A stretch of DNA of 40,000 nt from Terrabacter aerolatus (GCF_007991735.1 NZ_BJYX01000024.1:7727-47726), one strand, 5' to 3'. Positions 1,564 to 25,298 are shown, numbered from the stretch's first letter. Translations and numbers: made by a program. The notes: generated by a model not told the origin, from the letters alone.

Positions 1564-3729
1564 TCAGCCCTCAGCCAACTCGCGAAGAATGGCCGAGGAA
1601 CCACGGGAGTTCACCTGGATGATTGGACGACTGCCGCGGTGCTCTTTGATGAAGTCTGTTGCTGCGTGCTTGGCGGAGGCGGCGACCATTACGAAGACGT
1701 CAGCGTTCGCGCTAAGGGCGGCCAACTGCTGGCTGCCGTCATGCTCGGATGTCGTACGCACATCGATGCCTGGCATCAATCGGCGCAGAATTTGTGCAGC
1801 ACGCGTTATGGCTGACTCTGTTAACGAATAGAGCACCACCACAGCGTCCTTCAAGTGTCGATAGGCGGCGCCCGGGTCGGCGTCCGAGTTCTGTACCTCG
1901 AAGTCGTCGGGCAGCGCCGTGGCCAACTCCTCGCCCACGAGGCGGAGCCCCTCAATGTCAGCAAGACTGAGGCTGGATCTCACCGGTCGGAGCACGTCGA
2001 GTGCGCGAAAGTACAGCCTGCTCTTGGCGGACAGGGCGAGAGCTTGGGGGGTTGTCGTGGCTGCCTGGAGAACGTCGACGGTCCAGCTGGCTGTGACAGC
2101 GGAGGTCGCGGCCTCGACGATCATCTCCGACCACTCCAGGGCGGAGGAGAGCAATGCGGCTCCGGGCGCAGACGCAGACAAGTACTCGAGGAGTGCGACC
2201 GTCTGCACCCGCACGCCGATGGAACTCCTTTCGCTAACGGCGAATCCGGCGAGCACTCGTTCGCACAGTTCGGCGCCGTCCGCTGCTGCAAAGACCGTCG
2301 AATGCGCAGCCATGAAGGCACCGCCGTGGTCTCCGAGGCGCGCCAATGCCTCCTCGTCCATGGACGCCAACCGGTCTGAGATGGTGGCATGATCCAGCGG
2401 ATGCCATTCAGACGTAACGCTGAGGTCTAGCGCCGCGTCCTTGAGGTCGTTCGCCTCCAAGGCATCGAACCAACCGAGCCATCCCAGGTTTCTTTGCGGA
2501 TTGATGAACCTGTCGAGCCACTCCAAGTCGGCGTGTACAACGACATCGTCCCCTGCTTCTTCGCGGAGTCCGCAGGCGTCGACGAAGGCCGCCACCTCCA
2601 CTGCGAGGCCTGGGTCCTCCAACTCCCGAATGCAGGAGAGCAGCAAAGCAGCCACGACCGGGGTCGGTGGCTCAGCGAGGCCTGTCATTACGGCGGCGGC
2701 GAACTCGCCCTCAGCGATGAAGCGGTGAAGTTCATCCTCCGTTGTGATTGTGGCCGTTGCCACTGTCTCCAACTGAACCGTTTCCGAGGTGGGCTTGGTT
2801 GCCGGAGCGTGCAGAAGTCGCAGGGAGTCAGCCAAGGCCTTCGACAGGGTCTTAGCCTCGTCGGCCAACCGGCCAAGGGTTGCGGGTGACCCTCCTCGAA
2901 GGGTTCTGAGCATGAACTCGGTGACCACTGCGGGTCTAGTCGAGGTGGCCCCGCTTGTCGCAAGTTCGCGGAATTGAGGCGGAATCTGCTGTGCCGCTTC
3001 GAGCAGTGCCGCGCCGTCGCCTGAGACGTCCGCGGACGCCAAATACCGTTCGTAGACTGCGGTTTGCAACAAACGCGTGATACCGATTGGGCGACGCAGT
3101 TGAAGGACGTGCTCGAGGTCTTGGTCGGCAAAGATCGCCGTCGTGTCGCCAAGCGCGGCATATACGCGCAAGCGGAGGAAAGCGAGGTTCGAATGGTCAA
3201 GATCAGCGGACGTCTCAAGTTCACGGAGACATTCGAGGGCGATCCGACCATCTCGAGCGCCGATGGCGTGTCCTAGGTCGTCGAGGATCTCCACCGTGGT
3301 TCGAGGTGCGTCGAATTCCGAGCGCGGGCGCTGCCACACCAACTTGGAGAGAACAAGGAGTGTTTGACGTACCTCATCACGGGAGGGAGCACTCCCGCGT
3401 GGGAGGACCTCAAAGCGCAGTGGTGGTACGTCGGTCAAGGCTAGTGCGCTGTCAAACGCATCCTGTGGGTACAGACGCCCCCGGCTTCTGGGCAGGTCAC
3501 TGAACGTCGGGCCAATCCAAGCGTCCAGGAGTGTGAGCAGTTCCTTCTTCTCCCGCAATGTAGGAGCAAACCCATACCAATAGAGTCTTCCGTTTGTCAC
3601 CCTCGGCAGGAACGCGATCTGTCCGCGCCCGATGGCATCTCGCCATCTCTCGATCGACGTCTCCTGCTCGGGCGGCAGGCGTGCGGGGTTGATGTCGTTG
3701 CCCACGCCGAAGAACTCGTCAATCTGCAT
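1564..3729 (-). CDS. hypothetical 721-aa protein, last gene of the dpd-like operon (possible DpdD equivalent, by elimination only)
   Basis: Long ORF with natural amino-acid composition. Its ATG at 3729 overlaps the PLD gene stop by 11 nt. The C-terminal ~90 aa (DAVVVLYSLTES...ADVFVMVAASAKHAATDFIKEHRGSRPIIQVNSRGSSAILREL) resemble the DUF2325-type pattern by eye. No catalytic motif recognised. Confidence 0.6.
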   Translation of the reverse strand: MQIDEFFGVGNDINPARLPPEQETSIERWRDAIGRGQIAFLPRVTNGRLYWYGFAPTLREKKELLTLLDAWIGPTFSDLPRSRGRLYPQDAFDSALALTDVPPLRFEVLPRGSAPSRDEVRQTLLVLSKLVWQRPRSEFDAPRTTVEILDDLGHAIGARDGRIALECLRELETSADLDHSNLAFLRLRVYAALGDTTAIFADQDLEHVLQLRRPIGITRLLQTAVYERYLASADVSGDGAALLEAAQQIPPQFRELATSGATSTRPAVVTEFMLRTLRGGSPATLGRLADEAKTLSKALADSLRLLHAPATKPTSETVQLETVATATITTEDELHRFIAEGEFAAAVMTGLAEPPTPVVAALLLSCIRELEDPGLAVEVAAFVDACGLREEAGDDVVVHADLEWLDRFINPQRNLGWLGWFDALEANDLKDAALDLSVTSEWHPLDHATISDRLASMDEEALARLGDHGGAFMAAHSTVFAAADGAELCERVLAGFAVSERSSIGVRVQTVALLEYLSASAPGAALLSSALEWSEMIVEAATSAVTASWTVDVLQAATTTPQALALSAKSRLYFRALDVLRPVRSSLSLADIEGLRLVGEELATALPDDFEVQNSDADPGAAYRHLKDAVVVLYSLTESAITRAAQILRRLMPGIDVRTTSEHDGSQQLAALSANADVFVMVAASAKHAATDFIKEHRGSRPIIQVNSRGSSAILRELAEG

Positions 3730-4243
3730 GACGGGCGCCTTCGTAAAGAGCGTTGTACGCGATGCGAGCCTCGGCGATGGCGTGAGGGTCGCGCGTCAAC
3801 GTCACGCCTTCCGCGTTGACCGCCTGTCCGAAGTAGGTGAAGTTCATAGATCCCTGGAGGTGGAATCGGTCGCCCAAGAGACCCTTGTCGTGAAGCTTTG
3901 AATGAATCTGCACTGTGGGTCTCGCCCCGAGGCCGCCAGCATTCTCGAGTCGCTGTCGGGCAACAACGTTGCTCTCAACATCGCGAGTGAGAACGCGCAC
4001 GTCGCTGCCCCGACGAGAAAGTTCAACCAAAGCCTCCGTCAGGCGAATCTTTCGCGAAGGGAGGCCGGGCAGGACGGTCTTGAACTGGCCGGCCGTGTTG
4101 TCGATGACGTCGATGTCGGAGATCCAAGGCGACAGGACCCACAACTGTTTGGACGGCACTAGCAGTTCTGTCACGAGAAGGTTCTGCATCAGGTCGTTGA
4201 GAATGCGGGTTTGTCCGTGGCCCGCGGTCGTGATCCGTCTCAT
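3719..4243 (-). CDS. dpdK: PLD/HKD-family nuclease (DpdK-like)
   Basis: 174 aa. HSKLHDKG...GSMNFT matches the HxK(x4)D...GSxN phospholipase-D/Nuc signature. Its ATG overlaps the upstream helicase stop (ATGA at 4240-4243). Confidence 0.8.
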   Translation of the reverse strand: MRRITTAGHGQTRILNDLMQNLLVTELLVPSKQLWVLSPWISDIDVIDNTAGQFKTVLPGLPSRKIRLTEALVELSRRGSDVRVLTRDVESNVVARQRLENAGGLGARPTVQIHSKLHDKGLLGDRFHLQGSMNFTYFGQAVNAEGVTLTRDPHAIAEARIAYNALYEGARHAD

Positions 4244-7200
4244 GCCGACACCTCAGCGAGTTCGAGGGCGACGACGACGTCGCCGTTCGCCCTATGATCG
4301 ATCTCCACAACACGCGGATAGACGTTGAGATATTCGGTCACGACAGGTTCGACACACGTGTCCACGAGCAGGTCCGCGAGATCCCCCGCCTGCTCGGGGG
4401 TCGCCAGAACCTGTACGGATCCTCGCCGAGATAGGGCGTGGCGGACGCGGTCTCGGTAGTCGCCGGTCAGCAGGAGCGGAGGATCGCCCGCGGCAGCGAG
4501 CGAGCGCAGGACCTCAGGTGCCGGGGGCAAGTTATCGGCAAAGGGATTCCACGCACTCAACTGTTCGGCACGGAGTTGCCAACCGCGGGGCCAGAGCAGG
4601 CTCTGGACCGCGTCCATGCGTCGGCGCTCGCGGTCTCCGCCTATAAGGACCAGACCAGGGTCCAGATCTGAGCGCGTACGCATCAAGTACGCCCAAGTCC
4701 GTGGCGGGATTTCGACACCGAGCCGCCGCTCTTCCGACTTCCACTCGGTCGTTATAGTCGACAAGGTTGTGTCCGTGGTTAATGTCGAACCGGGCCGCAG
4801 AACGCGGCTGGCCAGCGAGGATACAACCGACTGCTCGGCGCCGTAGATTCCCGACTGGCGAAGGGCATCCCGGATGCGTCCGAGCGTCTCGACGCGCGTC
4901 GCCTGGTCGGGCGCCACGCGAAATTCGTTGACGAGGCGGCCCCATGTTGGGTCGGTCGCCGTCAGGTCAATCACTCGTTGAAGGTGGCTGTCAACGAGTT
5001 CGTACGTACTCGGCTGCGTGGCTCGAAGGATCAGCCGAAGCAACCGCCGGGGATCCGGACGGACACGGGATGCAAGAGCCTCGATGAAGCCTCCGCCGCC
5101 GATCGAGGACTCGGTCAACCAAATCTCTCCCGTCCTGCGCCTTCCGTCCGAGTCATAACCTGGCTCGATGTCCACGATTACGCTCTCCGGATCGTGCTCC
5201 GGGCAGATCTGTCGAGCGGCCGCGAGGGTCGCATGTCCGAGAGTCGAAAGCGTGCGTTCCCGGATCCACCGATTGAACGCAACCGCTTCGGGAGCCCAGT
5301 ATTGCGATGCCAACGCGTCGAGGCGGGCGACGATGGCGGGGTTCCTCAGCGCCTCCTTGAGCCGAGCGCCCATCCGCGAGAGTGCTGCAGACTCCGACTC
5401 GACCACACCGGTGCCCCTAAACATGGCGTCTAGGGTTTCGTCGAGCCGACCGTCGAATGAGTCGTGAACGGCCGCGTACGCCTCTGCAACCGTGGTGTTG
5501 TCGCGGACTGCCGTGGTGAGCAACATCGCCTCCAAACACTGATGGAGCCAGTCGATGCGGAAACTGTTGAGGCAGTTGAGCAACTCGTTGTCGGTGAGCA
5601 ATACGTGCTTAAACCAAGCACTTCGCAGGCCGGGCAGGAGATCTGTCGGGACAAGAATCTCCTCCGGCAGGTCGACTTGGATGCGCAACCCGTCCACGTC
5701 GAAGGTGGAGCCCATCGCCGCAGGCTCGCCTTGAAGCGAGAACCGGGATCGCACGCGCTTATCGGTGCCGTCGTCGAGATTCAACGTGGCATCGGAGCTA
5801 ACAGCGGCGCGATGAACTTTCACGTGGGCGTTCTGAGCGTGCAGATAGAAGCGCGCGTCCTTGATGAGGCGCCCGAGTGGATCGGCCGCTGGCACGCGGA
5901 TGATCAGGCCAGTTCCGGTTTCGACGAACTGCGAGCGCCACTGCATTGTCGCATTTGACGAGTCCTTTACGTTCTGCGGCGGCAGTTCAACCAAAACCTG
6001 ATCGGGGCGGACGACGGTCGTTGTTGTCGGCGCGCCGTCGATGTCGATTGTGCACGGCTCCTCCACCGCGAAGAGCGGCAGAACCGTGCTGAGTTCAAGC
6101 ACCGATTCTGTGACATCGATCGGAACGGGGATCCAGTGACGGTGTTCGAGATTTCGAGTTGCGAATCGGCGTGAGACCCGACCGGGTGCGTATTCCCGGA
6201 GCATTTGCCCAAGCCCCATGGCATGGAGTTCGCGCTCGGTCTCCCGATCCGACTGGGGGGGAATGCTCACGTAGGTCTCGGGCAAGGCCAATTCGCTGAA
6301 GAGGTTCGTCGGGAAAAAGTCTGGTAGCGGGTTACCACCCATAAGATCCCGGAATCCATGCACTGTTTCGGGGTCTGCGACACCCCAGTTGTGGAGGAGA
6401 CGGCGACGTAAGGTCGGGATGGCCTGGAGTAGAAGCGGCCGCGGCGGATGCCAGAGGACTTCGTTGGCCTCCGAGTCGGACAGATCGAGTGCGTTCTGGA
6501 CCCAGATGCGCAGGCTCCGCTGACGGTCCGGGTCGCGGAGCGCGTCGTTCAGCACATCGACGGCCTTAAGTTGAGTTTCGCGACCCGGCCGGGCGAAAGT
6601 ATCAGCCGGCTTCTGCCCGAGAGCGGACCACGCAGTAGTTGTCTTGGGGATGCCGTACTGCCGCAGCTGGGTTGTGAGCCAATCAATCATTGCAATGGTG
6701 GCTTGCATGCGTAGAACTGCGCGGTTGCGGATCGGCAGAACTAGGTCGGGTAGCACCGGTTCAAACAAGCTGTCCCAGGCCTCGTACGTCGCGCGGTCGC
6801 GCCCGTAGTCGGACAGCACGACTGCCGTGTACGGGCGCATCGTGCGCTTGCGTCCGGCCCGACCCTTGCGCTGGAGGAAGGCTGCCACTCCTCGAGGCGC
6901 TTTGTGCTGGATGACGACACCGACGTCTGGATCGTCGAAGCCGACCTCTAGGGATGCTGTTGCGACGATCAGTTGACTGTCGGCGGTAACGCCGGAGTCC
7001 TGCGAGGTCGTTCGACTCACTCGTAGGCCCTCGCCCATGCTCGCGAACTTGTGGCCTACCGCGGTCGGTAGATCCCAAAGTTGACCTGCGCGACGTTGCA
7101 GCGTGACATCCCCGACGGCAGTGTTGGCGCGCAAAGACGCGAGAGGAGGTTTGAACGACTTCGGCTTTCCGAAGGCGTACTTCTGGCCCTCGGCGTCGAG

Positions 7201-8736
7201 AAGATATGAGAACAGACGGTTAGTGACGTCGAGGTCGTCGGTGAAGACGAAGGCCTTCGTGCCGAAGACGCCTGACGAGATCCGACTCGCTGGTTCATCC
7301 TGCGTGCGCGGCAGCAACATGGACGTTTGGATCGTGGTCGATAGCACCGATGCGCCGCTGGTTGGATCGCTGCGGAGCGCGAGCAAATACTCCGCCCCCT
7401 CGTACTCCAATTCCTCCGGTTCGGGCGTGATGCTCGTGACTAGGTCGTCGTCGACCCCGGTGAGATCCGCCATGTGACGGATCGGGTTGGACAGCGTCGC
7501 CGAAAGACCAACGAAGGTGATCGGAGCCTGAACGCTGTGGTGCCACCGGCGAAGGACCATTGCGGCTTGCGCCCCGGTGGTTCCGTCGTAGGTGTGTATC
7601 TCGTCCAGGAGCATCATCCGAGGCTTCCTGCCTGGCGGCGCGTCAATGCCCAAGGGTCGTGAGAGGTTCAGATCAGACAGACCTCGATTGAGCATCTCTG
7701 TCGTCACGAACAGCAGATCCGGGGGAGCGCTCTGCATGGTTTGCCGGGTCAGAACAACTTGGTCCTGCCCGAATGAGCGCCTGCACCTTGCGCACACCAG
7801 GCGCTCGACCCCGGCGTCGATGTCCTCGTTTCGCCAGATGAGTTCGCCCCCGCAGGGGGCGAAGCCATCGCCGGGGCAGCGCATCTGCGGCGAAGCCATG
7901 CCATGGGGCCGCTTGCCCCAACCCCGATAGGAAGCCCTCACGTTCTTGGCGTTGGTCGGTGTACCGCCGTAGAGAGCGCCGATCGTCATAGATCGTCCAG
8001 TGGAGCGCTTCCACAGATCGTTGAGTCGGCAGGCATGGGCGAACGCCGTGTCCAGTTGATCCTTCAGCAATTCGGTCCTGGGATAGACGGCTAGTGCGCG
8101 AGTCCACGCAGAAGGGTCGCTGATGCCCGCTAGGTAGCTGAATGCAGGGAGGTAGAACGCGTTCGTCTTTCCGCTTCCTGTGCCGGCACCGACCACCGTT
8201 GCTGTTGTGGTCTGACTCTGCAACGCCGTCAGGATGTGCCTCGTTGCGCGTACTTGGAACCCGCCGAGGAGGTCGTGCTCACCGTCGCGCTGGGTCATTA
8301 CCTCAAGGACACCGCGATACGCGTCGATAGGGCCGACGACCCCGTCGAGAGCCGTGGTCCAAGGGTGATCTCGCTTTGGGTAGAAGCGGGGGCGGCGTGC
8401 GTACCGGAAGTCGGAGATCAGGTTGGTTCCGGATTGCCAGGTCTGGCCGAGGAAGGTCTGTCGGAGCCGCGCCACCAAGCGGATGGTTTCGCCGTTGCGG
8501 GTACGCCAACGGCTGGGCGAAGCGCTGGAGTCGTGCAACAGTAACGCGCGTGTCGTCATCGCCTCGATGATGTCGTCGGCGCTCAAATCCCACTCGTGGC
8601 TGGAAGTGAGTTCATCGGCGATAACTTGGCGCAGTTCCTCGGTGCTGAAGCCACCGTCGACGATGCCCCAGCACAGGAGCGGATCCTCGAGGGACTCGAG
8701 TCGGTCAAGGATCCTGGTTAACAGCGCTGAGTTCAT
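4240..8736 (-). CDS. dpdJ: very large DExH-box superfamily-2 helicase (DpdJ-like)
   Basis: 1498 aa. Walker A GAGTGSGKTNAF, motif II LLDEIHTY, SAT-type GLSATLS, motif VI FLQRKGRAGR. A Cys4 insert (CPGDGFAPCGG...CARCRR) sits between motifs I and II. ATGA overlap with the upstream gene at 8733-8736. Confidence 0.85.
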   Translation of the reverse strand: MNSALLTRILDRLESLEDPLLCWGIVDGGFSTEELRQVIADELTSSHEWDLSADDIIEAMTTRALLLHDSSASPSRWRTRNGETIRLVARLRQTFLGQTWQSGTNLISDFRYARRPRFYPKRDHPWTTALDGVVGPIDAYRGVLEVMTQRDGEHDLLGGFQVRATRHILTALQSQTTTATVVGAGTGSGKTNAFYLPAFSYLAGISDPSAWTRALAVYPRTELLKDQLDTAFAHACRLNDLWKRSTGRSMTIGALYGGTPTNAKNVRASYRGWGKRPHGMASPQMRCPGDGFAPCGGELIWRNEDIDAGVERLVCARCRRSFGQDQVVLTRQTMQSAPPDLLFVTTEMLNRGLSDLNLSRPLGIDAPPGRKPRMMLLDEIHTYDGTTGAQAAMVLRRWHHSVQAPITFVGLSATLSNPIRHMADLTGVDDDLVTSITPEPEELEYEGAEYLLALRSDPTSGASVLSTTIQTSMLLPRTQDEPASRISSGVFGTKAFVFTDDLDVTNRLFSYLLDAEGQKYAFGKPKSFKPPLASLRANTAVGDVTLQRRAGQLWDLPTAVGHKFASMGEGLRVSRTTSQDSGVTADSQLIVATASLEVGFDDPDVGVVIQHKAPRGVAAFLQRKGRAGRKRTMRPYTAVVLSDYGRDRATYEAWDSLFEPVLPDLVLPIRNRAVLRMQATIAMIDWLTTQLRQYGIPKTTTAWSALGQKPADTFARPGRETQLKAVDVLNDALRDPDRQRSLRIWVQNALDLSDSEANEVLWHPPRPLLLQAIPTLRRRLLHNWGVADPETVHGFRDLMGGNPLPDFFPTNLFSELALPETYVSIPPQSDRETERELHAMGLGQMLREYAPGRVSRRFATRNLEHRHWIPVPIDVTESVLELSTVLPLFAVEEPCTIDIDGAPTTTTVVRPDQVLVELPPQNVKDSSNATMQWRSQFVETGTGLIIRVPAADPLGRLIKDARFYLHAQNAHVKVHRAAVSSDATLNLDDGTDKRVRSRFSLQGEPAAMGSTFDVDGLRIQVDLPEEILVPTDLLPGLRSAWFKHVLLTDNELLNCLNSFRIDWLHQCLEAMLLTTAVRDNTTVAEAYAAVHDSFDGRLDETLDAMFRGTGVVESESAALSRMGARLKEALRNPAIVARLDALASQYWAPEAVAFNRWIRERTLSTLGHATLAAARQICPEHDPESVIVDIEPGYDSDGRRRTGEIWLTESSIGGGGFIEALASRVRPDPRRLLRLILRATQPSTYELVDSHLQRVIDLTATDPTWGRLVNEFRVAPDQATRVETLGRIRDALRQSGIYGAEQSVVSSLASRVLRPGSTLTTDTTLSTITTEWKSEERRLGVEIPPRTWAYLMRTRSDLDPGLVLIGGDRERRRMDAVQSLLWPRGWQLRAEQLSAWNPFADNLPPAPEVLRSLAAAGDPPLLLTGDYRDRVRHALSRRGSVQVLATPEQAGDLADLLVDTCVEPVVTEYLNVYPRVVEIDHRANGDVVVALELAEVSA

Positions 8737-9443
8737 CGCAGGTGCACCTTGAATCGGGCGATGATGCCAAGAGCAGCGAGCTTCTTGAGACGTTCAGGCG
8801 TGAACCACGTCAGCGAGACGCCGCCCGGCTCCTGAGACCCCACGATGCCCTCAGCGATGTCGGCGTCAACCACCTCTCCGATTTGCTCGCCGCAGCGATG
8901 GATCGACTCCACGGCTGCTCGATGCTTCTTAACAGCACCACGGTCCGGGATGGGGCTGCTGGTGACTGCGAGCAACCGGGCCCGTGCGGTCTCCAGCGCA
9001 TCGCGGATCTCCTCGACGTCGACCCCGCCCTGCGCCAGTGCGTCGATGAGATCGACGTTGACCGCAGGCGGAGGCTGACTCACATACGTTTGCCACGTGC
9101 CCGCGACGAGAGCGCGTAGCTCTTTGGCGTACTTCTCGGCCGACCGGACACGCTCCTTGGCGAGGTCGAGATTCTGCTCCATTCCGAGCGCAGGCACTTC
9201 ACTCGCCAGAGCACGGAGACTCTGGGCTACCTGGGCCGCATCCTGTTCGTGCCCCGCCGGCAGTTCGACATCGAGTTGCATGACCTCACTCAGCGCGACG
9301 ATGAGCGCGGGCAACTCCGTCAACATTTGGGCGAGGCGTGCACTGAGATCTGCGAACTGGCCTGTCCGGACCTTGACCTGGTGTTCGTCGTTGGCGACTT
9401 CGGCGTGGGCACGCAGATCCTGGATCGTGCTGCGCAGGGTCAT
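8733..9443 (-). CDS. hypothetical protein, helical/coiled-coil-like (DpdI position)
   Basis: The ORF track starts at 9467. I prefer the ATG at 9443 (MTLRSTIQ...) because it forms an ATGA overlap with the upstream stop at 9440-9442. No motif recognised; the Dpd assignment is by synteny only. Confidence 0.6.
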   Translation of the reverse strand: MTLRSTIQDLRAHAEVANDEHQVKVRTGQFADLSARLAQMLTELPALIVALSEVMQLDVELPAGHEQDAAQVAQSLRALASEVPALGMEQNLDLAKERVRSAEKYAKELRALVAGTWQTYVSQPPPAVNVDLIDALAQGGVDVEEIRDALETARARLLAVTSSPIPDRGAVKKHRAAVESIHRCGEQIGEVVDADIAEGIVGSQEPGGVSLTWFTPERLKKLAALGIIARFKVHLR

Positions 9444-12400: not shown

Positions 12401-12496
12401 GACGCCGTCCGACGTGCTTTCCGCCTCGACAGGGATGATGGCTGAAGCCTCGTGTGCGTCCCAGCAAGCCGCTGGGAGGTTGCCGCGCCAACTCAC
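9440..12496 (-). CDS. large P-loop NTPase (DpdH position)
   Basis: Walker A ILGKSGTGKSHLV and Walker-B-like LLVLIEDFS. The track ORF (to 12904) has an Arg/Pro-rich N-terminal extension that overlaps the upstream gene. The real start is most likely the GTG at 12496. It is preceded by GGAGGA 5 nt upstream and overlaps the upstream TGA (GTGA at 12493-12496). Confidence 0.75.
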   Translation of the reverse strand: MSWRGNLPAACWDAHEASAIIPVEAESTSDGVFLATHSTIPITQRDQVDSARGGAVVDEQALLRAVQDQPADQPIIPILGKSGTGKSHLVRWLRAHLETKESTRLIFVPKHRMSLRGILELILEHASGERADELRSKVATAVDAAADEKTAQLKLRNALAVNIETRGNRTDGSPEEIELRSYLASAGGLPALFGDDVFRSRLLDQNGPIARLVREKLSGKGDEDKEDAFGFTPDDLNLSVDDVNRAGQAAREVAGALTSEHSFRELAAKMINEQLGPSVSEVFGVGGDDLKQILVDVRVELDKQGLELLVLIEDFSIFQGIQGGLIDAITLISTEAQKLCPMRVVMAVTTGYFINQMPETVYTRTYRVFDLDLPDGMNASFQPTGFASRYLNAVRVGASELDAAHAREEEVPNACEQCPVNAACHSSFGQVDGYGLFPFNQAALDRAIKSHSTDGSFVARNVLTRVLRPVLHRDQAEINHGRFPSEGFANDFRGGASHRLTNIEDQFKLRSPGDEELSERRIRLVRFWGSGPGAENLAPTIHDAFDVTPIDDLGDARPPTPDSRPTLPTKPSATSTSTPQPVAPDPPLVKAVDGWLATGNILQGEINDLRNIVFQAVRQRLPFEDGYGGESLWGNDKALAPGFEAKMVEFSQAKIADAVLPMDRSNPDDMRALRALAWANHKNNWADVPDGERLQRLTETAIDRWASRVGINLLPPQRPDNDTELARLVEVLLSIARGLGIADAFKSDTTSRIRAMFAPVPDRPDLESRAGLRALHSFLEEGARSGSAVTRVGRGQLQQRLLRHASFSQGSGKPLALDLSKVAKVVRSEVTGAPWPASTPDLIRSSVSTIEARLASIDSLHAEASNLVPDLSDLGGELADVAWELLVLVNERAAAGALPGGINPAELQAAVKSVKPGDQRKVEAAFAELSRWDQLTHDEKLQVLNGDWDEPARRVGAWLQMARQTVRLLEHSLGNGSPSDVQREYAEAREQLIANLTAMADSISPPATEAWSEAEEIA

Positions 12497-13416
12497 TTCT
12501 TTCCTCCATGGTTCACGATGGCGTGCGTTTGGCGCGCGGCGTCGAAACGGGACAGGCGGATGCCTTGTGCGTCTGGGAGCGTCTCGAATCGGATCCGTCC
12601 GCGTTCCTCGAGGATGCGCAGTGCCTGTCCGACTGAACTGTCCGCGCACTCGGCGACGATGCCTGGGTCGGGATCGGCTCCAAGGAGAGCCACGAGTCCG
12701 AACCGCATTGACCCACCATGAAGGACGGGGAGCGCTTGTCCGATGCGTGCCAACAGGTCGTGGATCGAGAGACGTTCGGCGGGCATCGCTCGTAGGGCGT
12801 CCTCCACCGCGGGCACCGGCAGTGGAACCACGCCGGTCCGGTCCTTCATGACTGACGGGGTCGCCAAACCGAGCGCGACAATCCAACGCGACGCAGCCAC
12901 CCAACGCGTGTCATTGACGATGGCCCACGATTCACGATCGGTTGTGCCGAACTGTTCAGACTGGAGTGTTTGTAGATTCTCGGTCCACGACAGCGGCTGC
13001 CCCAACGCGTCCTGTGCCAACACCCAGGTCAGGGCTCGGTTGAGGTCACGAGCGCCGCTCGTGTGTCCATCGCCCAGCTGCGTTGCCCAGACATCGCCAT
13101 CCCGGCCGAGGTCGAACACGCGGGCTTGAAGGAGTCGTCGAAACTCCGGAGGGTCGAACGGTGCCTTCGGCGTCGGAACCTGAGCGCCTAGTTGAAGAGT
13201 TCCGTCGGGATTCGTCTCGAGCACGTTGATGGCGCGCAGAGAGGAGATCGTGTTCTTCAGTCCGCCGGCGGCCTCGCTGCCGGGGTTCAGCCCCTCCGGC
13301 TTGAAGGCGGCAACGAGATCGTCCTCGGTTGACGAACGTCGTGCGTCGAGAAGGTAGTTCACGATGGCGCGGCCGAGGCCTGGCAATGTGCGTGGCGGGT
13401 TGAGTACTGCCATCAC
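12493..13416 (-). CDS. hypothetical protein (DpdG position)
   Basis: 307-aa ORF. Its GTG start overlaps the upstream helicase stop (GTGA at 13413-13416). No motif recognised; assignment by synteny only. Confidence 0.6.
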   Translation of the reverse strand: MMAVLNPPRTLPGLGRAIVNYLLDARRSSTEDDLVAAFKPEGLNPGSEAAGGLKNTISSLRAINVLETNPDGTLQLGAQVPTPKAPFDPPEFRRLLQARVFDLGRDGDVWATQLGDGHTSGARDLNRALTWVLAQDALGQPLSWTENLQTLQSEQFGTTDRESWAIVNDTRWVAASRWIVALGLATPSVMKDRTGVVPLPVPAVEDALRAMPAERLSIHDLLARIGQALPVLHGGSMRFGLVALLGADPDPGIVAECADSSVGQALRILEERGRIRFETLPDAQGIRLSRFDAARQTHAIVNHGGKK

Positions 13417-16010
13417 AGGCTCCTAAGGAAGTACGACAGCGTCCAATGCGGGAAGCGAATGGCCTTCACGGGTTGGCCCGGATACTGAGGGTCCGGCGTG
13501 TCCTCCGGGAGTACGACGATCCGAAGGGAACCCGCCTCCCCAGCAAGCCAACTCAACTGAGGTGGATCGGTCCGGTCCAATAGGACCAGCGTGGGGATCG
13601 GGAAGGTTCGGGGCGGACCCGCGATGATCGGATCGATGGCGACCAGTCCCTCGGGTGCAGAGCGACCTGCCCCCACCACTGCGGGCAAGCCGGTCAGACT
13701 TGCAGATGCCAAGATTCCTCGGACCCCGTGTGTCACTGCCTTTGTGACGAGTTCGGCAAGGTGGATCCGAAGATCTCCCTCGGGATAGGTCACCACCAGT
13801 GACCGGCCGCTGGAGGCCATCGACGCAAGGGTGGGACTTACTCCGCGGTGCAACAGGGGGAGCGGTGCTTCTTGCACCACTGGTCGTGCAGCCCGCAAAG
13901 ACGGCTCATGGACATGCGCGGCAGCGGGACATCCCGAACACGCGGGTGCGACCACCTGGTGAGCGCGCATCGCGCCCACCTCGTCGTACGCATATTCCTC
14001 GCTCAGGATTGAACCCCAGCATTCATCGAGCCTGAACATGCGCTCGATGCGGTCGCGCGAGCCGGCTTCTGAATAACGGATCTCACGTCGGACCTTGTCG
14101 ATCGCACGCAGGACGGTGGCCTCATCGACATTCGCAATGCCCGAGCGGATGCGCACGGTCGCACGCGTCACGTACGCGGACCAGGCTGTATCGACTCGCT
14201 TCTGCCAATCGGCTTCAGATTCGTCCTCGGCGCGCTCCAGGGTCGGCGGGGGAGTGTCGACAATGTCGAGCACCCCGGCCCGTTGTAGCAGGACCAGAGT
14301 GTTGCGGTTCCACAGTTGGTTGCTGTCGGAGGCGTGGGAGAGCCAGGGAGGGACGGTGCTGGTGTCCACGACGAGTTCGCGGCGCGTTGGGTCCGCCGAG
14401 ATGCGCGCCGTACGCATCGCGTCCCATCGACCCCAACTCTTCTTATCGCCAAGAACGGTGGCATTCTCGATGCTGCGACCTTCCTGGGCATCGGCGGTGC
14501 TCGGCATCCAGACCGATACGGCTGCGTGACCGTCGCGGCCACCGCGGCCAACCTCTTGATAGAAGCGGTCGACTGAGGCCGGCACACAGGCGTGGATGAC
14601 AGAACGAACGTCACTCTGGTCCACACCAAGCCCGAACGCACTGGTCCCCACGACCACGTCGACGGACGTTGGGCCAGCATCGCCAGACCACGCCCTCAGG
14701 ATTTCGAGCCTGTCGTCCGCGTGCACATCGCCATGGAAGACCGCCGTGCGGCCAAATCCCGCCTCTCGGAGTCGAACTGCAAGCGTGTCGGCCGACTCCT
14801 TCTTGCTGGTGTAAACGATCGCCGGCCGCGGAAGGTGGTGGAGTGCTTCGACAACCCGATCGAGGCGCGCCTCGTTAGGGACGGGCGGCGCAAATAGGTA
14901 ACGGAGTTCCGTGCGCAGGTACGTGGAACCTACGAACAGCGAAGTGTCGGCTCCGGCGAACAGTTCGTCGTTCAGCAAGAGGCCCTGTCGGGAGAGTGTC
15001 GCAGTCAGCAGTTCTACGTGGGGCGGTGCTACCCCTTGAGCCCGGGCGACCTCTCTCAGTTCGGCGATCAGGGAGGCGACTACTTGAAACTCGGGTCGAA
15101 AGCTCAGGCCCCAGGTGCGTACGAGGTGCGCCTCATCGATCACAACGTGGCTCAGTTCGCCCCGGGCAGCTAGGCGCCGCAGAGTCTGCGCCAGACCGGT
15201 GACCAGAGCCTCGGGCGAGGTGTAGAGAACCCTTTGCGTCCCTTCGCGCAGGCGCTCCTTGATCGCTTCCCTTTCGGTCGCGGCACGATCGCCGTAGTAG
15301 GCCAATTCCTGAGGAAGGCCCTGGTTTGGAAACCGCTGATGAAGTTGGCGCTCCTGGTCAAGCGCCAGCGCAATGGTCGGCACCACGACGACTGTCACGC
15401 TGGTACGAGCGAGTAGTCCAGGGGCGATGCCGACCAAGGACTTACCTGTTCCGGTGGGTAGGACCACGTGGAGTGTGCTGCCTGCAGGTGCAAGCGCAGC
15501 AGCCCGGACGGCGCTCGCTTGGCTTCGCGAACGGTAGGTGTCAATCCCAGCAATCGCAGCCACGGACGGGTCTACCGGCACTGCCATGTCGTGCCGGGCA
15601 AAGGTGGATACGACGCCCTCCGGACCTTCGAAATTGTCGGGGCTTGTGCAGGCCATATCGATCCAACGCCCGTCGCCGCGGAGCCAGTCGGGCGCCCAGT
15701 CTGGGCCAAGGGTGACGCGGTGCTCGTGCAGCCCGAACGTGGCGACGTCGAGGTTTGCCCGGCGAAGCGTCTCGAGCGGAAGGCCGCGGTCGTAGAGGCG
15801 AAGGGTCAGGTAGCTGTTGGAATGCCCTGTAGTCCCTCGGCGATGACGCAGTACCTGGCCTAGAAGCGCGGCAACGTCACCCGCGATCTCGGGCCCCGGA
15901 ACATCTGAGAACCATGCATCTACCAGTCGGCGGTGGGGCCCGATGAGAAGATCGCGGTTGTTTGTGGCTCCAGCCAACTTGGCTGCCCCCAGGTTCCACT
16001 GATCCGTCAT
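13413..16010 (-). CDS. dpdF: RecQ-like DEAD/DEAH superfamily-2 helicase (DpdF-like)
   Basis: 865 aa. Walker A LPTGTGKSLVG, motif II VVIDEAHLV, TAT (LLTATLS), motifs V/VI VVGTSAFGLGVDQ...YQEVGRGGRDG. Starts 1 nt after the SNF2 gene stop. Confidence 0.85.
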   Translation of the reverse strand: MTDQWNLGAAKLAGATNNRDLLIGPHRRLVDAWFSDVPGPEIAGDVAALLGQVLRHRRGTTGHSNSYLTLRLYDRGLPLETLRRANLDVATFGLHEHRVTLGPDWAPDWLRGDGRWIDMACTSPDNFEGPEGVVSTFARHDMAVPVDPSVAAIAGIDTYRSRSQASAVRAAALAPAGSTLHVVLPTGTGKSLVGIAPGLLARTSVTVVVVPTIALALDQERQLHQRFPNQGLPQELAYYGDRAATEREAIKERLREGTQRVLYTSPEALVTGLAQTLRRLAARGELSHVVIDEAHLVRTWGLSFRPEFQVVASLIAELREVARAQGVAPPHVELLTATLSRQGLLLNDELFAGADTSLFVGSTYLRTELRYLFAPPVPNEARLDRVVEALHHLPRPAIVYTSKKESADTLAVRLREAGFGRTAVFHGDVHADDRLEILRAWSGDAGPTSVDVVVGTSAFGLGVDQSDVRSVIHACVPASVDRFYQEVGRGGRDGHAAVSVWMPSTADAQEGRSIENATVLGDKKSWGRWDAMRTARISADPTRRELVVDTSTVPPWLSHASDSNQLWNRNTLVLLQRAGVLDIVDTPPPTLERAEDESEADWQKRVDTAWSAYVTRATVRIRSGIANVDEATVLRAIDKVRREIRYSEAGSRDRIERMFRLDECWGSILSEEYAYDEVGAMRAHQVVAPACSGCPAAAHVHEPSLRAARPVVQEAPLPLLHRGVSPTLASMASSGRSLVVTYPEGDLRIHLAELVTKAVTHGVRGILASASLTGLPAVVGAGRSAPEGLVAIDPIIAGPPRTFPIPTLVLLDRTDPPQLSWLAGEAGSLRIVVLPEDTPDPQYPGQPVKAIRFPHWTLSYFLRSL

Positions 16011-16011
16011 G

Positions 16012-19000
16012 TCAGTTCGTCAGTGCTCGGCCGGAGAGAACCACAAGCCCAGTGCTGTCAAGCCGAAGTGAGGGCGCGGTCACGGCGGCGGACATGGCGC
16101 GGGCAATGACTTCCTCGCGATGGAGTTCCTCATGCAAACGCACGAGTTCGGATCCTGTAGTGCGCATGGCTCGCAGTCGCAACTGGGAGAGCCTTGTTGC
16201 CGCGTCGCGATCGGCGATGGCAGAAGCTCGCTCGACCGCCGAACGAACGTCCTCGCGACTGCGGACGAGATGCTGAGCCGCTCTTTCCGCGGATCGCCAA
16301 GACTCGCCCCAGTGTTGTGCGGGAATGAGGTCGTAGGCGTGCTGGATCCTCATACGGTTTAGCGAGTAGTCGCCGCCGGCACGAGTGGTGCCCGGTTTCG
16401 CGTATGGGGCGTCGAGGGCGTCGAGATGCGTCCGCGCGGTCAACTCCTGCGCGCTGGCTGTCATCCAGACGCTGACGATGATGGGAGGAAAGATTCCATC
16501 GGCCCGCCGCGTAAAGGCGAGCTGGTCGATGCCCGCACTGACTGTCACGAGTTCACCACGCGGGTCCCTTGAGGAGGGAACATCAAGGGGGTTCGCCTCG
16601 ACGGCGTAGTCGAATCGGTAGAGCGGAGTGTCCTCACGGGGCCATTCGGGCATCGAACGCCACATGCCGAAGGCTCGGCCACGATCGTCGTGCCACAGGA
16701 AGTCGCTGACGGCGTCGATGAACGGGTCTCCGTAGCGGTAGAGGTGGACGTCCTCGCTCGAGAGGGCAAACTCCCGAACGAAGGTTCCGACGTGGTCCTT
16801 CAACGGAAGGAAGTCGCGAACGAGGCGCGATGCCGGGATCAGCGGAATCTGCGCTTGCTTCCCCGGCAGACGGCCGAGCGACTCGTATCCGCCCAAGCCA
16901 GTGGCAGGGTGGCCTCTCCGCTCGAATCTAAGGTTGCCCGCCGCGCCATTCGCTGCGAGAAGGTTGTTGCTCACGTTGGCGAATGTTGACGCATCGGATT
17001 CCACGTCAGCGATCCGCGCATACACGGAGCGCTCGTCGACGCTCGTCTCCAGGCTGTCGAGCGCGTCCTGTTCGCGGACGCGCTCGATCTCCGCGTCCAG
17101 CATCTCTCGAACCCGCGCCACCGCGGAGGGAACACCGTCGAGTCCCATTTGAAGGAGGATGTGCCACGCCTCGTCCGTTGCGTTGTCGACGGCTTGCTGA
17201 AGGCTGGCGACCGAGTTGTCGAAGATCCCGAAACCGTCCTTGAGGATGCGCTCCCAGGCGCCGGAGTAGGCGTCATCCGCGTGTCCCGAAACGACATATG
17301 ACCGCCACCCCCCGGACCCTTCGGGCGACCACCGGTCACAACGGCCGATGCGCTGCTCGAGACGGTTTGCTGATCCCGGAAGTCCCAGATGCACCAGAAC
17401 ATTCGCGAACTGGAGGTTGCGACCCTCTTCGGCCGATGAATCTGCGACCATGACTGCGGCATTATGGATCGCCTCGAACGAGCGCACCGAGCGGTCGTTC
17501 TCCTGGCTACTTTGGGTCGTCACATGGCAGAAGACAGACGTGGCGCCGAAGAGATCCTTGAGCTCCTCAGCCAGTTCGGTTGCCATTTCAGTTGTGGGGC
17601 AGAAGACGACAGCACGCTCGTTGGACGTCATGACCTCGCTGAGCGCGTCAGCGAACGGGCGGCTGACGGTTGCCCGTCGGTCCGCGTAGGCCACGTCCTG
17701 CACGATGCGCTTTAGCGCCGCGATTTCGTCAGCGGCTAGCGGCGCGGCGGCCCGCTCCAGTGCCCACTTCTGCAGGGCACTCGGGTCAAGGCTCACTGCT
17801 GCGGCCTCGGCGAATGCGCGCCCGGCCAGGGTCATCGCCGCCGGGTTGCCCTCTGCCGACGCAAGAGCCTGTTCCCGCCATCGGTCGAGAGCCTCTGCAA
17901 CGTCGTCGCGCAGGGTCGACTCCAGGGGAAGTGGCTCAGGCGCGCGACGACCAGAGACCCGATAGGTGCCCTCCAACGCCGTGGTACGCCGGGTCCGGAG
18001 CATTCGTCGGTGTACGCGGTACACCTCGGCAATGTGCGTGCGCAGCGCCTGGATCAGGGATGCCGTCTCGTCCCTGTCTTGAGTGGCCACCGACTCGCGG
18101 GCGCGCGCTACCAGATCGCGGACCTCGGCGTCGTCGGGGAACGAGGCTTCGATCTCCGTCAGGCGCCCCTTCAGAAGGACCCCTGGGAGGCTGGGTTGCA
18201 GCCCGAGAAAGACCCGGCCCAAGCCCGCACGAGCCTCCAAGCGCGATCGAAGTTGCTCCGCATTGGTGTCGGCATAAACCGCCGGGTCTAGCAGTTTGAG
18301 CATCGCGAGGAAGGCGTCCTCGTTATGCAGCGCTGGTGTCGCGGAGAGCATCAGTAGGCGCGGACTTGCAAGTGCGATCTCACGAAGCCGCTGGAAGCGG
18401 AGGGCGAGGTCGGGATTCGTGCTGACTGACATTCGTGCAAGGTTGTGTGCCTCGTCGACTAACACGAGGTCGGCCGCGTCCCACGCCGACGGCTCGTCAT
18501 CACGACTGAAGCGAATATGCGACTGGGTGAAGTCTTGCACGCGGAATTTCTGGGTCAACTCTCGCTTCCACTGGTCGAGTAGGAACGGAGGCAAGATGAA
18601 CTGGATCCGAAGACTGGGGTTATCCAGCAGCATTTGGCGGATGATGATTCCCGCCTCGATGGTTTTGCCTAGGCCGACCTCATCGGCGAGAAGATAGCGC
18701 TGGACAGGATCCTGTAGAACGCGCCAAGCGGTCTCGACCTGGTGGGCATGGAGTTCGATGCAGCTCGACAGCACAGCGCGCATGCCATGAGCGGCCGAGC
18801 GCTGCTGAAGGATGCTGCGGAGGAACGGCAAGCGCAGTTCAGCGAGCATGGGCGACTCGAGCATGCCGGCCTCGCCAAAACCCACCGGGTCCGTCAGTGG
18901 CTTATTCCATCGCACGTAGAGGCGTTCTTCCGGGATGAAGCCTTCCCACTCGTGGCCCCGCACATGGATGTCGTTGTACGCCGTGATCTCGATGACGCGT

Positions 19001-19443
19001 CCGGAGCGCCAAATGCCGGTTGGGTCCTGCCAGAAGGCACGTTGCTCGGGAGGGAGGGTCACTCGCCGGAGGCTTTCGCGTGACACAGCCTCCCGATAGC
19101 GGTCCGAAGGCGCCTGGCCTGGCGTGTCGAAGTACTCAAGGACCAGAGCATCACCTTCCCGCGCAACGAGTTTCCCGGGCCCGAGGACGTTGTCGGAAGA
19201 AGTGAGCAGGTCACCTCCCGATAGCGACTTGCCCCGGCCCCCCTGCCTGGACGTGGAGGAGGCCTTGCTGACCCTTCTCGCTGGTGTGTGGTTCTCGACC
19301 GCTTCGCCATTCGCGTCTCGCGACCCTCGGCATCGTGGGAACTGCGAGCAACCCCAGAACGCCTTGCCGACGTTGGCGCCCTTCGATGCAAACTGCATGA
19401 CCATTGCCGCTTCGCAACGCGGACAACGAACGTGGTCAACCAC
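16012..19443 (-). CDS. dpdE: SNF2-family helicase with N-terminal topoisomerase-type C4 zinc ribbon (DpdE-like)
   Basis: 1143 aa. N-terminal CPRC...GCSQFPRC zinc ribbon. SNF2 motifs LLADEVGLGKTIEAG, LVLVDEAHNL, LMLSATP, and C-terminal RLEQRIGRCDR. GTG start at 19443, with GGAGGG 6 nt upstream. Confidence 0.85.
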   Translation of the reverse strand: MVDHVRCPRCEAAMVMQFASKGANVGKAFWGCSQFPRCRGSRDANGEAVENHTPARRVSKASSTSRQGGRGKSLSGGDLLTSSDNVLGPGKLVAREGDALVLEYFDTPGQAPSDRYREAVSRESLRRVTLPPEQRAFWQDPTGIWRSGRVIEITAYNDIHVRGHEWEGFIPEERLYVRWNKPLTDPVGFGEAGMLESPMLAELRLPFLRSILQQRSAAHGMRAVLSSCIELHAHQVETAWRVLQDPVQRYLLADEVGLGKTIEAGIIIRQMLLDNPSLRIQFILPPFLLDQWKRELTQKFRVQDFTQSHIRFSRDDEPSAWDAADLVLVDEAHNLARMSVSTNPDLALRFQRLREIALASPRLLMLSATPALHNEDAFLAMLKLLDPAVYADTNAEQLRSRLEARAGLGRVFLGLQPSLPGVLLKGRLTEIEASFPDDAEVRDLVARARESVATQDRDETASLIQALRTHIAEVYRVHRRMLRTRRTTALEGTYRVSGRRAPEPLPLESTLRDDVAEALDRWREQALASAEGNPAAMTLAGRAFAEAAAVSLDPSALQKWALERAAAPLAADEIAALKRIVQDVAYADRRATVSRPFADALSEVMTSNERAVVFCPTTEMATELAEELKDLFGATSVFCHVTTQSSQENDRSVRSFEAIHNAAVMVADSSAEEGRNLQFANVLVHLGLPGSANRLEQRIGRCDRWSPEGSGGWRSYVVSGHADDAYSGAWERILKDGFGIFDNSVASLQQAVDNATDEAWHILLQMGLDGVPSAVARVREMLDAEIERVREQDALDSLETSVDERSVYARIADVESDASTFANVSNNLLAANGAAGNLRFERRGHPATGLGGYESLGRLPGKQAQIPLIPASRLVRDFLPLKDHVGTFVREFALSSEDVHLYRYGDPFIDAVSDFLWHDDRGRAFGMWRSMPEWPREDTPLYRFDYAVEANPLDVPSSRDPRGELVTVSAGIDQLAFTRRADGIFPPIIVSVWMTASAQELTARTHLDALDAPYAKPGTTRAGGDYSLNRMRIQHAYDLIPAQHWGESWRSAERAAQHLVRSREDVRSAVERASAIADRDAATRLSQLRLRAMRTTGSELVRLHEELHREEVIARAMSAAVTAPSLRLDSTGLVVLSGRALTN

Positions 19444-19448: not shown

Positions 19449-19480
19449 ACCCTCCGTACGACCGGCGACTCCGGGAGGGT
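19449..19480 (-). promoter_or_regulatory. candidate RNA hairpin sequestering the Shine-Dalgarno of the SNF2 (dpdE-like) gene
   Basis: On the minus-strand mRNA, ACCCUCC (19480-19474) can pair with GGAGGGU (19455-19449). That is a 7-bp stem with an 18-nt loop. The 3' arm is the GGAGGG ribosome-binding site 6 nt upstream of the GTG at 19443. Confidence 0.35.
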
Positions 19481-19517
19481 AACTCGGAAACCGGGTCCGT
19501 GGGGGCAAACGGCCGGT

Positions 19518-19535
19518 TAGGACACGGATGTCCTA
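19518..19535 (-). other. small hairpin overlapping the stop codon of the dpdB-like gene
   Basis: TAGGACA-cgga-TGTCCTA: a perfect 7-bp inverted repeat with a 4-nt loop, covering the TAG stop (19533-19535). It lies at the only intergenic gap of the operon. Confidence 0.3.
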
Positions 19536-23866: not shown

Positions 23867-23967
23867 GACCCCTCGGATACAAAACTACGGCTTGGTTGTC
23901 GGTACTCTAGCGTGTAGTTTCGTCGGACGGTGCGCGTACGCACAGCCGGTATCGAGAGGTGGATGTT
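23867..23967. promoter_or_regulatory. divergent control region between the dpd operon and the preQ0 operon
   Basis: About 100-bp, comparatively A/T-rich spacer between divergent start codons. It contains the inverted repeat AAACTAC (23882-23888) / GTAGTTT (23914-23920) and GTGCG-cgta-CGCAC (23930-23943). GAGAGGTGG lies 6 nt upstream of the queC ATG. Promoters themselves are not identified. Confidence 0.4.
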
Positions 23968-24666: not shown

Positions 24667-25298
24667 GTTACAAGATCAAGGAAATCTTCTACACCCTTCA
24701 AGGCGAGGGCACGCATGCCGGCCGCCCCGCCGTCTTCTGTCGCTTCACGTCCTGCAATCTGTGGACAGGCCGTGAAGCCGATCGTGAGAGAGCGATCTGC
24801 AAGTTCTGCGACACCGACTTTGTTGGCACGGACGGCGAAGGGGGCGGCAAGTTTCATGACGCCGAGGCGTTGGCGACCGCAGTGGCGTCTAAATGGCCGG
24901 TGAACGGCGGAGGGCGACCGATGGTTGTGTGCACGGGCGGCGAACCCTTACTGCAGCTGGATGCCGACGCCGTGGATGCCCTCCATGCACGTGGCTTCTA
25001 TGTTGCAGTCGAGACGAACGGGACTGTCACGCCGCCCCCCGGTATCGACTGGCTCTGCGTGAGCCCCAAGATCGGGTCCGAACTACTCGTCACGAAGGGC
25101 CACGAGCTCAAATTTGTCGTCCCTCAGGGCGGCGTCGATCCGACCACGTTCGAAGACCTCGAGTTCGAGAGTTACCGAGTGCAGCCGATGGATGGCCCGG
25201 ATGTGGCGGCGAACACCGAACTGGCCGTGCAGTTTTGCCTCGACCACCCGCTATGGCAGCTCAGTCTGCAGACGCACAAGCAGCTAGGAATACCGTGA
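24663..25298 (+). CDS. queE: 7-carboxy-7-deazaguanine synthase QueE (radical SAM)
   Basis: [16 protein letters not shown]...[29 protein letters not shown] carries the Cx14CxxC cluster variant known from Burkholderia-type QueE. GTGA overlap with the queC stop. Confidence 0.9.

Follow-up and report, generated by a model that had tools for sequence, protein, structure and literature searches.

The restriction half of a probable Dpd system in Terrabacter aerolatus: gene families, structure models and relation to DISARM and BREX

Introduction

Dpd systems, named after 7-deazapurine in DNA, use 7-deazaguanine bases, and not methyl groups, to mark the DNA of their own cell, and they attack DNA that is unmarked. 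They have reportedly been known since the work of Thiaville et al. in 2016. Three of their proteins, DpdA, DpdB and DpdC, have been reconstituted in vitro and are sufficient for modification in vivo; restriction is carried out by dpdD-K and has been shown genetically only, in Salmonella (PMC10164549). Genome mining puts the number of unique dpd islands at 2,335, with Actinomycetota accounting for 333 (10.1101/2025.02.24.639861). Here we describe a stretch of 40,000 nucleotides from Terrabacter aerolatus (NZ_BJYX01000024.1:7727-47726; the whole stretch is referred to as the window), whose positions 1564-19443, on the minus strand, represent, with a probability that we put at about 0.88, the eight-gene restriction operon dpdE-dpdF-dpdG-dpdH-dpdI-dpdJ-dpdK-dpdD of a complete Dpd system. 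The locus is an ordinary actinobacterial member of this already described system, and nothing in its arrangement is unnamed.

An original prediction, made from the sequence of the window, had described seven of these open reading frames (ORFs), at 3719-19443, as a methylase-less restriction module with DISARM-like logic, built of three helicases, a giant NTPase and one small nuclease and lying downstream of modification genes. Filed correctly, the 17.9-kb block that resembled an orphan, methylase-less relative of DISARM is the restriction half of a Dpd system and comes off the list of candidate new systems.

Identification of the operon

Nine Dpd families passed their NCBIfam equivalog cut-offs in the window: DpdA, DpdB (in two copies), DpdD, DpdE, DpdF, DpdG, DpdH, DpdJ and DpdK (Table 1). 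DpdC was matched by PADLOC (3e-101); NCBIfam returned no family for this candidate, even at E<=10. With DpdI, which was reached by transitive homology and not through a curated threshold, every feature of a Dpd system that is open to a sequence test was found, namely DpdA, DpdB, DpdC, DpdD to DpdK, the gene order and the linkage to preQ0 genes. DpdD and the protein in the DpdI slot are 100% identical to hypothetical proteins of T. aerolatus (Intrasporangiaceae, Actinomycetota), the former to GCM10009868_26620.

The genes form an unbroken series of twelve ORFs on the minus strand, from 23866 down to 1564, in which dpdC-dpdB'-dpdA-dpdB lie directly upstream of dpdE and co-directional with it, with 89 nucleotides between dpdB and dpdE. 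All eight restriction genes are intact. Their junctions from dpdE to dpdD all overlap or abut (GTGA, ATGA or an 11-nucleotide overlap) and internal ribosome-binding sites are present, pointing to one translationally coupled operon. The start of dpdF abuts the dpdE stop; dpdG more likely starts at ATG 13413, its homologues having 306 amino acids; the start of dpdH was refined to GTG 12496, which has a GGAGGA site upstream and overlaps the dpdG stop; dpdI makes ATGA overlaps with both dpdH and dpdJ; and dpdD overlaps the dpdK stop by 11 nucleotides. The ORFs of the original prediction were all confirmed, as were their minus-strand orientation and the domain calls (SNF2, RecQ-like, P-loop NTPase, DExH and HKD), and the NTPase given as roughly 1018 amino acids has exactly that length from GTG 12496. 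The predicted interval holds seven ORFs and stops one gene short, at dpdK, leaving out dpdD (1564-3729).

The order E-F-G-H-I-J-K-D recurs in relatives. Scanning of one genome per species yielded nine actinobacterial loci, from Nocardioides (two), Terrabacter sp. Ter38, Ornithinimicrobium, Cellulomonas, Kribbella (three) and Streptomyces, with DpdH identities of 57-93%; order and gene lengths are the same in all nine. The same eight-gene order is present in PGAP-annotated plasmids of Enterobacter cloacae, Agrobacterium vitis and Nostoc, and the window proteins are just ~24-33% identical to the enterobacterial ones.

In eight loci, a hexamer of the pattern TAnnCT lies ~32 nucleotides before the start of dpdE, whichever gene stands upstream. 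Its conservation suggests a candidate -10 box, and thus a promoter that would belong to the restriction operon itself, separate from the modification genes. Scans for sigma-70 promoters and terminators at the operon ends gave nothing above shuffled sequences, as expected for a host that is a high-GC actinobacterium. The 89-nucleotide gap before dpdE also contains a perfect inverted repeat, TAGGACA-tccg-TGTCCTA (19518-19535, minus strand), which runs over the dpdB stop codon. The repeat is not conserved among related loci; it might act as an operator or form a small hairpin.

Table 1 Features of the Dpd island in the window. Bit scores are those of the NCBIfam family of the same name, with the cut-off in brackets.
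Feature	Position	Strand	Length (amino acids)	Assignment	Bits (cut-off)
dpdE	16012-19443	-	1143	SNF2-family ATPase	1155 (500)
dpdF	13413-16010	-	865	RecQ-like SF2 helicase	649 (550)
dpdG	12493-13416	-	306/307	predicted winged-helix-like array	152 (80)
dpdH	9440-12496	-	1018	P-loop NTPase	682 (450)
dpdI	8733-9443	-	236	divergent DpdI, start ATG 9443; described as helical in the original prediction	
dpdJ	4240-8736	-	1498	DExH helicase, YprA/DrmA-like lineage	1800 (800)
dpdK	3719-4243	-	174	single-HKD phospholipase-D-family nuclease	185 (100)
dpdD	1564-3729	-	721	last gene of the restriction operon	610 (300)
candidate -10 box	19476-19481	-		TACCCT (pattern TAnnCT); T, A, C and T invariant in 8 aligned loci	
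modification genes	19533-23866	-		dpdC, dpdB', dpdA, dpdB	
dpdB	19533-20636	-		DGQHR/ParB-like ATPase (NF041060)	500 (300)
dpdA	20629-21867	-		TGT-like DNA transglycosylase (NF041059)	599 (200)
dpdB'	21864-23000	-		DGQHR/ParB-like ATPase (NF041060); start refined to ATG 23000	397 (300)
dpdC	22997-23866	-		DpdC candidate	
preQ0 operon	23959-26453	+		queC, queE, queD, folE2; divergent from the dpd genes	

Motor proteins

Helicase motifs I, II and VI of DpdE, DpdF and DpdJ are conserved from Actinobacteria to Enterobacter. In DpdE they read GLGKT, DEAH and QRIGRCDR, conserved in the nine actinobacterial loci, and the closest solved structure is RapA (1e-24). Residues 1-40 (window 19324-19443, minus strand) form an N-terminal C4 zinc ribbon, CPRC...CSQFPRC, with C7, C10, C32 and C38, followed by a low-complexity linker; against Pfam Zn_ribbon_Top1 the ribbon scores 26.6 bits, under the cut-off of 32. 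Nine actinobacterial DpdE proteins have the ribbon without change, Enterobacter DpdE lacks it, and the NCBIfam model begins at residue 77. As judged from these alignments, the predicted ribbon is clade-specific. DpdF matches RecQ (TIGR01389, 1e-48), has the conserved motifs TGTGKS, DEAH and QEVGRGGR, and carries a C-terminal extension of ~350 amino acids with a conserved CxGC.

In DpdH, the Walker A motif GKSGTGKS (G80-K86-S87) and an E313-D314 pair are invariant from Actinobacteria to Enterobacter. Comparison of DpdH, DpdD and DpdG with solved structures, by single sequence and by profile, gave nothing below E 0.03.

DpdJ has the motifs AGTGSGKT, DEIH and QRKGRAGR and matches Lhr (6e-8) and YprA/MrfA (4e-3) in the PDB. 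A four-cysteine zinc module (C287, C295, C315 and C318) is inserted in RecA1 between motifs I and II and is invariant in 10 sequences; no C-terminal cysteine cluster is conserved. A preprint of 2025 assigns DpdJ to a DISARM-like clade among the YprA helicases, with a single zinc module in RecA1, and describes the OB-CON-DUF1998 canopy as fused to the helicase in Dpd, with four cysteines lost (10.1101/2025.09.15.676423). The single RecA1 module and the absent C-terminal cluster found here agree with that account where the two are comparable. No Pfam match to DUF1998 and no separate DUF1998 gene was found among the window proteins scanned. The remark in the original prediction that a DUF1998 gene is missing thus holds for a separate gene; according to the preprint, the canopy lies within DpdJ itself.

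DpdK, the predicted nuclease

DpdK is the only recognisable nuclease of the operon, just as had been supposed. It also matches Pfam PLDc_2 (5e-9) and has a single HKD motif, HDKGLLGD...GSMN, in which H118-x-K120 and GSMN are conserved in eight sequences; HxK...GSxN is kept from Actinobacteria to Enterobacter. Within the phospholipase D (PLD) family, Nuc and BfiI are the precedent for single-HKD proteins that act as dimers, and by analogy with them DpdK, having one such motif, should act as a dimer too.

DpdG, DpdD and DpdI

Three proteins that the original prediction had set aside as unknowns, and as candidates for sensing or adaptor roles, belong to named families: DpdG (12493-13416), DpdI (8733-9443) and DpdD (1564-3729). 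AlphaFold2 models were obtained for two of them, and Foldseek was run against the PDB, its top lists being taken as fold-class hints only. The DpdG model (alignment of 62 sequences; predicted local distance difference test, pLDDT, 91.2; predicted template modelling score, pTM, 0.90) consists of helix-helix-helix-hairpin modules of the winged-helix type, arranged in a chain. No match to it was found by Foldseek at E<=1e-3; the weak top matches are DNA binders with several winged helix-turn-helix (wHTH) domains, including AlkX/YcaQ, the recognition domains of FokI and Nt.BspD6I, Hel308, IclR/Fur and MukEF. On this modelled fold, DpdG is a candidate DNA-binding adaptor.

In the DpdD model (alignment of 68 sequences, pLDDT 85.5, pTM 0.70), residues 1-132 form an N-terminal alpha/beta domain, residues 145-601 an all-alpha solenoid and residues 628-721 a C-terminal Rossmann-type domain. 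The last of these weakly matches Pfam DUF2325 in 67 of 68 homologues, and the DUF2325 literature is uninformative. Again no Foldseek match to the PDB was found at E<=1e-3, the weak top matches being TPR, PPR and ARM solenoids. A methyltransferase or a second nuclease within the unknowns, which would have altered the original model, did not appear: neither fold was seen in the AlphaFold2 models of DpdD and DpdG or in their Foldseek searches.

The 236-amino-acid protein encoded between dpdH and dpdJ has the highest ratio of non-synonymous to synonymous substitution rates in the operon (dN/dS 0.14-0.23). At default thresholds it has no match in NCBIfam, Pfam or PADLOC. A permissive comparison with the DpdI model NF041066 gave 17 bits (E 0.003), under the cut-off of 150, in an alignment that begins at residue 1 of the protein and position 1 of the model, the two lengths being 236 and 239; similarly weak DpdI matches occur in 14 of 25 clade members. 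An hhalign comparison of the DpdI profile with the Enterobacter protein in the same slot yielded just a 35-residue C-terminal match at 6% probability. The link came instead from a search of representative proteins. Against 1.84 billion of these, the clade profile retrieved 46 proteins, mostly of 231-241 amino acids; in a 36-member alignment of retrieved representatives together with the window protein and that from the Enterobacter I slot, 24 are DpdI by NCBIfam (best E 4e-31). Position and length of the I slot are conserved in 13 loci, and all canonical loci examined have a protein of this size there. From this chain of sequence relationships we conclude that the protein is a fast-evolving true DpdI.

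In PGAP-annotated Dpd clusters, the I-slot gene is called a hypothetical protein in Enterobacter (L010 15077-15925), Nostoc (L012 12252-12956) and Agrobacterium (L013 12238-12972). Much of the family thus escapes the current DpdI model, and a true DpdI in the I slot is overlooked by current annotation models in four phyla.

Modification, preQ0 and neighbouring genes

Beside the operon, queC (TIGR00364), queE (TIGR04508) and folE2 (NF010200) score above their cut-offs and queD was found by Pfam PTPS (5e-37); queC, queE, queD and folE2 together make up a full preQ0 pathway. No methyltransferase family matched any ORF scanned between 33 and 27087, and the family scans bear out the claim of a restriction module without a methyltransferase, placed downstream of the genes for modification. 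The absence of a methylase is explained by the exchange of guanine for preQ0 through DpdA, DpdB and DpdC.

The two DpdB paralogues stand on either side of dpdA and, although both exceed the NCBIfam DpdB cut-off, are mutually just 33-36% identical. The two-DpdB layout is also found in the Nocardioides and Terrabacter sp. Ter38 loci (L001-L003), and the second DpdB possibly makes a heteromeric ATPase or provides a second target specificity. Genome mining reports extra dpdB copies as the commonest duplication and dpdD and dpdI as the genes least often detected (10.1101/2025.02.24.639861), so both the paired DpdB proteins and the hard-to-detect DpdI fall within known variation.

Beyond the other end of the operon, two overlapping plus-strand ORFs (33-674 and 671-1543) converge on dpdD in the part of the window with the lowest G+C (GC) content (0.575), and they may form a small cassette of their own, either mobile or for defence. 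ORF 671-1543 has a His-Me/HNH-like motif, CAVC...EH...CRPCNTLKND, with a Pfam Endonuclease_7 match of just E 0.05. It was considered as a recurrent Dpd partner and rejected, being unlike the HNH genes beside dpd in Agrobacterium and Nostoc and absent from the nine related loci; ORF 33-674 is likewise absent from these.

Comparative genomics and selection

Over the Dpd island (window 1-27100) the GC content is 0.58-0.64, compared with 0.67-0.73 beyond it (27100-40000). The proteins of the restriction block are 74-95% identical between genera of different families (Nocardioides, Ornithinimicrobium and Cellulomonas). Low island GC and high identity across families point to recent horizontal spread, and the data fit horizontal acquisition of the island; neither a tRNA integration site nor an integrase was found in the window. 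In relatives, the modification and preQ0 modules lie variably upstream, downstream and inverted, or beyond 10 kb, so that the restriction block behaves as a self-contained cassette.

Purifying selection acts on all eight genes, with dN/dS of 0.06-0.23 against three relatives (0.08-0.09 for DpdG). Compared with Terrabacter sp. Ter38, dS is 0.60-0.66 for dpdE to dpdI, 0.87-0.96 for dpdJ and dpdK, and 1.42 for dpdD; this unevenness along the operon suggests recombination between Dpd islands within it. A rearranged Dpd-like cluster, whose architecture is unlike the canonical E-F-G-H-I-J-K-D, is present on plasmid pART37 of Paenibacillus sp. 37 (L011 4702-30443). It has a 689-amino-acid DpdA, a second TGT-family gene and a P-loop NTPase directly before dpdJ-dpdK, which are followed by a 935-amino-acid hypothetical protein, a helicase and dpdF.

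Proposed mechanism and alternative explanations

By orthology to Salmonella, for whose homologues the step is established, FolE2, QueD, QueE and QueC would make preQ0; DpdA and the ATPase DpdB would swap it for guanine in DNA, and DpdC would hydrolyse the preQ0 base to 7-amido-7-deazaguanine (ADG). The eight-gene operon would then restrict DNA that lacks the 7-deazaguanine mark, as in characterised Dpd systems.

A tentative scheme can be drawn for the restriction itself; we would sooner bet against all of its steps holding jointly than for it, though it is a real possibility. The eight translationally coupled products would assemble into an ATP-driven surveillance machine. DpdJ, as a DrmAB-like YprA helicase, would load on incoming DNA and serve as a tracking sensor, and the winged-helix array of DpdG, together with DNA-binding appendages of DpdJ and DpdE, would read the DNA and the 7-substituent in its major groove. 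Translocation and unwinding would come from DpdE (SNF2) and DpdF (RecQ-like). Assembly and licensing might be controlled by DpdH-DpdI, a BrxC-like ATPase with a helical partner, and by DpdD as a solenoid scaffold with its DUF2325 domain; unmodified DNA would finally be cut by a DpdK dimer.

A bolder proposal, rather unlikely in our estimate, makes DpdG the reader of both sequence and modification in Dpd restriction, so that a separate recognition module is combined with a motor-delivered PLD nuclease, and the topoisomerase-type ribbon of DpdE is an additional sensor of single strands or junctions in the actinobacterial clade. If true, it would name the long-missing discriminator of 7-deazaguanine-marked DNA.

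Several points weigh against the assignment of the locus and the mechanism drawn for it. Reviews of 2025-2026 still call dpdD-K a 'presumptive' restriction cluster (PMC12707154, PMC12904381). Marking and restriction in T. aerolatus are predicted from orthology. The roles given to individual DpdD-K proteins are putative and derive from domain homology, and cleavage of DNA by DpdK is a predicted activity. The terms 'scaffold' for DpdD and 'wHTH adaptor' for DpdG reflect a secondary-structure pattern in the models and weak matches, and should be taken as provisional. A profile of DpdJ residues 690-1498, searched against the PDB for homology to the DUF1998/MrfA canopy, found no match, and the canopy in DpdJ therefore rests on the preprint cited above. 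The likeness of DpdH to BrxC likewise comes from that preprint only and was not reproduced by sequence.

The strongest competing explanation holds that Dpd excludes foreign DNA without degrading it, through a BREX-like block of replication or injection, with DpdK as an accessory or back-up effector. Two or three components do resemble BREX (DpdE matches the BrxHI/BrxHII models in PADLOC at 1e-35, and DpdH+I has been described as BrxC-like; 10.1101/2025.09.15.676423), four ATP motors stand beside just one small nuclease, and the phenotype reported in the literature is that unmodified DNA transforms or replicates less, which is not a demonstration of cleavage. However, the HxK...GSxN active site of DpdK is intact and under strong purifying selection (dN/dS 0.06-0.08), dpdK is translationally coupled to dpdJ by an ATGA overlap, and the gene occurs in all canonical Dpd loci examined, beside dpdJ except in Nostoc, where an insertion separates the two. 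With no homologue of PglZ or PglX found either, we regard exclusion of this kind as decidedly unlikely.

Even less probable is a service of DpdF and DpdE to modification or repair, in which they would open DNA for DpdA/B or process abasic-like intermediates. In its favour, guanine has to be flipped and cut out of duplex DNA during base exchange, repair and remodelling of DNA commonly involve RecQ-like and SNF2 enzymes, and the restriction and modification genes are co-directional and closely spaced. Against this, DpdA, DpdB and DpdC alone suffice in vitro and in vivo (PMC10164549), the dpdE-D block moves independently of dpdABC across genomes, and a conserved -10-like box lies before dpdE; we hold the idea to be very improbable. 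A new, unclassified DISARM-like module that has lost its methyltransferase and DUF1998 protein, for which the DISARM matches given below and the absence of both genes could speak, is refuted by family scores and synteny: every gene scores far better as a Dpd family (1155 bits for DpdE compared with 123 for DrmD), the block adjoins dpdABC and the preQ0 genes, and the canonical Dpd gene order is found in four phyla.

The assignment of the block as the restriction operon of a Dpd system carries a wider question with it. How unmarked DNA is sensed and cut by so many motors was said in the original prediction not to be evident, and the same still holds for the literature, in which the Dpd restriction mechanism is unsolved (PMC10164549, PMC12707154). 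The puzzle of four ATP motors and one small PLD nuclease is therefore a published, Dpd-wide gap and not a peculiarity of this locus. The additions made here are small: confident models of DpdD and DpdG that contain no second nuclease or methyltransferase, the evidence on the DpdI slot, and the predicted clade-specific zinc ribbon of DpdE.

Comparison with known systems

The likeness to DISARM noted in the original prediction is real homology and has already been published (DpdJ with DrmAB, DpdK with DrmC, DpdE with DrmD/BrxHII); what does not stand is an unclassified module, the genes forming a canonical Dpd operon. DpdE matches DISARM DrmD (NF038317) at 1e-35 with 123 bits, short of the cut-off of 610, and PADLOC relates DpdK to DrmC (4.5e-4) and DpdJ to DrmA (2e-9), the latter locally over ~50 residues. 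The block does not belong to DISARM, because it has no separate DrmB and no DrmMI or DrmMII methyltransferase and the DrmD cut-off is not reached. Compared with class 1 DISARM (DrmA, DrmB, DrmC, DrmD and DrmMI), DpdJ, DpdK and DpdE are homologous to DrmA(+B), DrmC and DrmD, and the logic is shared as well, a helicase-centred complex with a PLD nuclease discriminating modified self DNA. Unlike DISARM, Dpd has no methyltransferase, its mark being a 7-deazaguanine base exchange, and neither a separate DUF1998 protein nor the 4-Cys cluster; DpdD, DpdF, DpdG, DpdH and DpdI are additional. The preprint further notes that DpdK is without the four-helix bundle of DrmC, that DpdE is BrxHII-like and that DpdH+I is BrxC-like (10.1101/2025.09.15.676423).

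Dpd and BREX both have a large P-loop ATPase and an SNF2 helicase (DpdH+I has been likened to BrxC, and DpdE to BrxHII), but the locus is without PglZ and PglX. No protein matched PglZ, PglX or BrxC in PADLOC or NCBIfam, which sets the locus outside BREX. BRIGADE has DpdG, DpdHI, PLD and deazaguanine genes in common with Dpd; in contrast to Dpd, it occurs in haloarchaea only, and its YprA helicases are ARMADA-like (10.1101/2025.09.15.676423).

Among actinobacterial Dpd islands, the window shares the eight-gene order, the gene lengths and the DpdE zinc ribbon, at amino-acid identities of 35-95%, whereas the placement of the modification and preQ0 modules varies and the two small ORFs past dpdD are its own. 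One such island, that of Kineococcus radiotolerans, has been validated for dADG/dPreQ0, according to the GATOR-GC preprint, which cites Thiaville 2016 (10.1101/2025.02.24.639861). The Dpd system of Salmonella enterica serovar Montevideo (dpdA-K) has all eleven protein families and adjacent preQ0 genes in common with the window, the same split into dpdABC for modification and dpdD-K for restriction, and a horizontally acquired island whose GC is below that of its host. The T. aerolatus locus differs from it in its actinobacterial host, its two DpdB proteins, the C4 ribbon of DpdE, a very divergent DpdI, and FolE2 in place of FolE.

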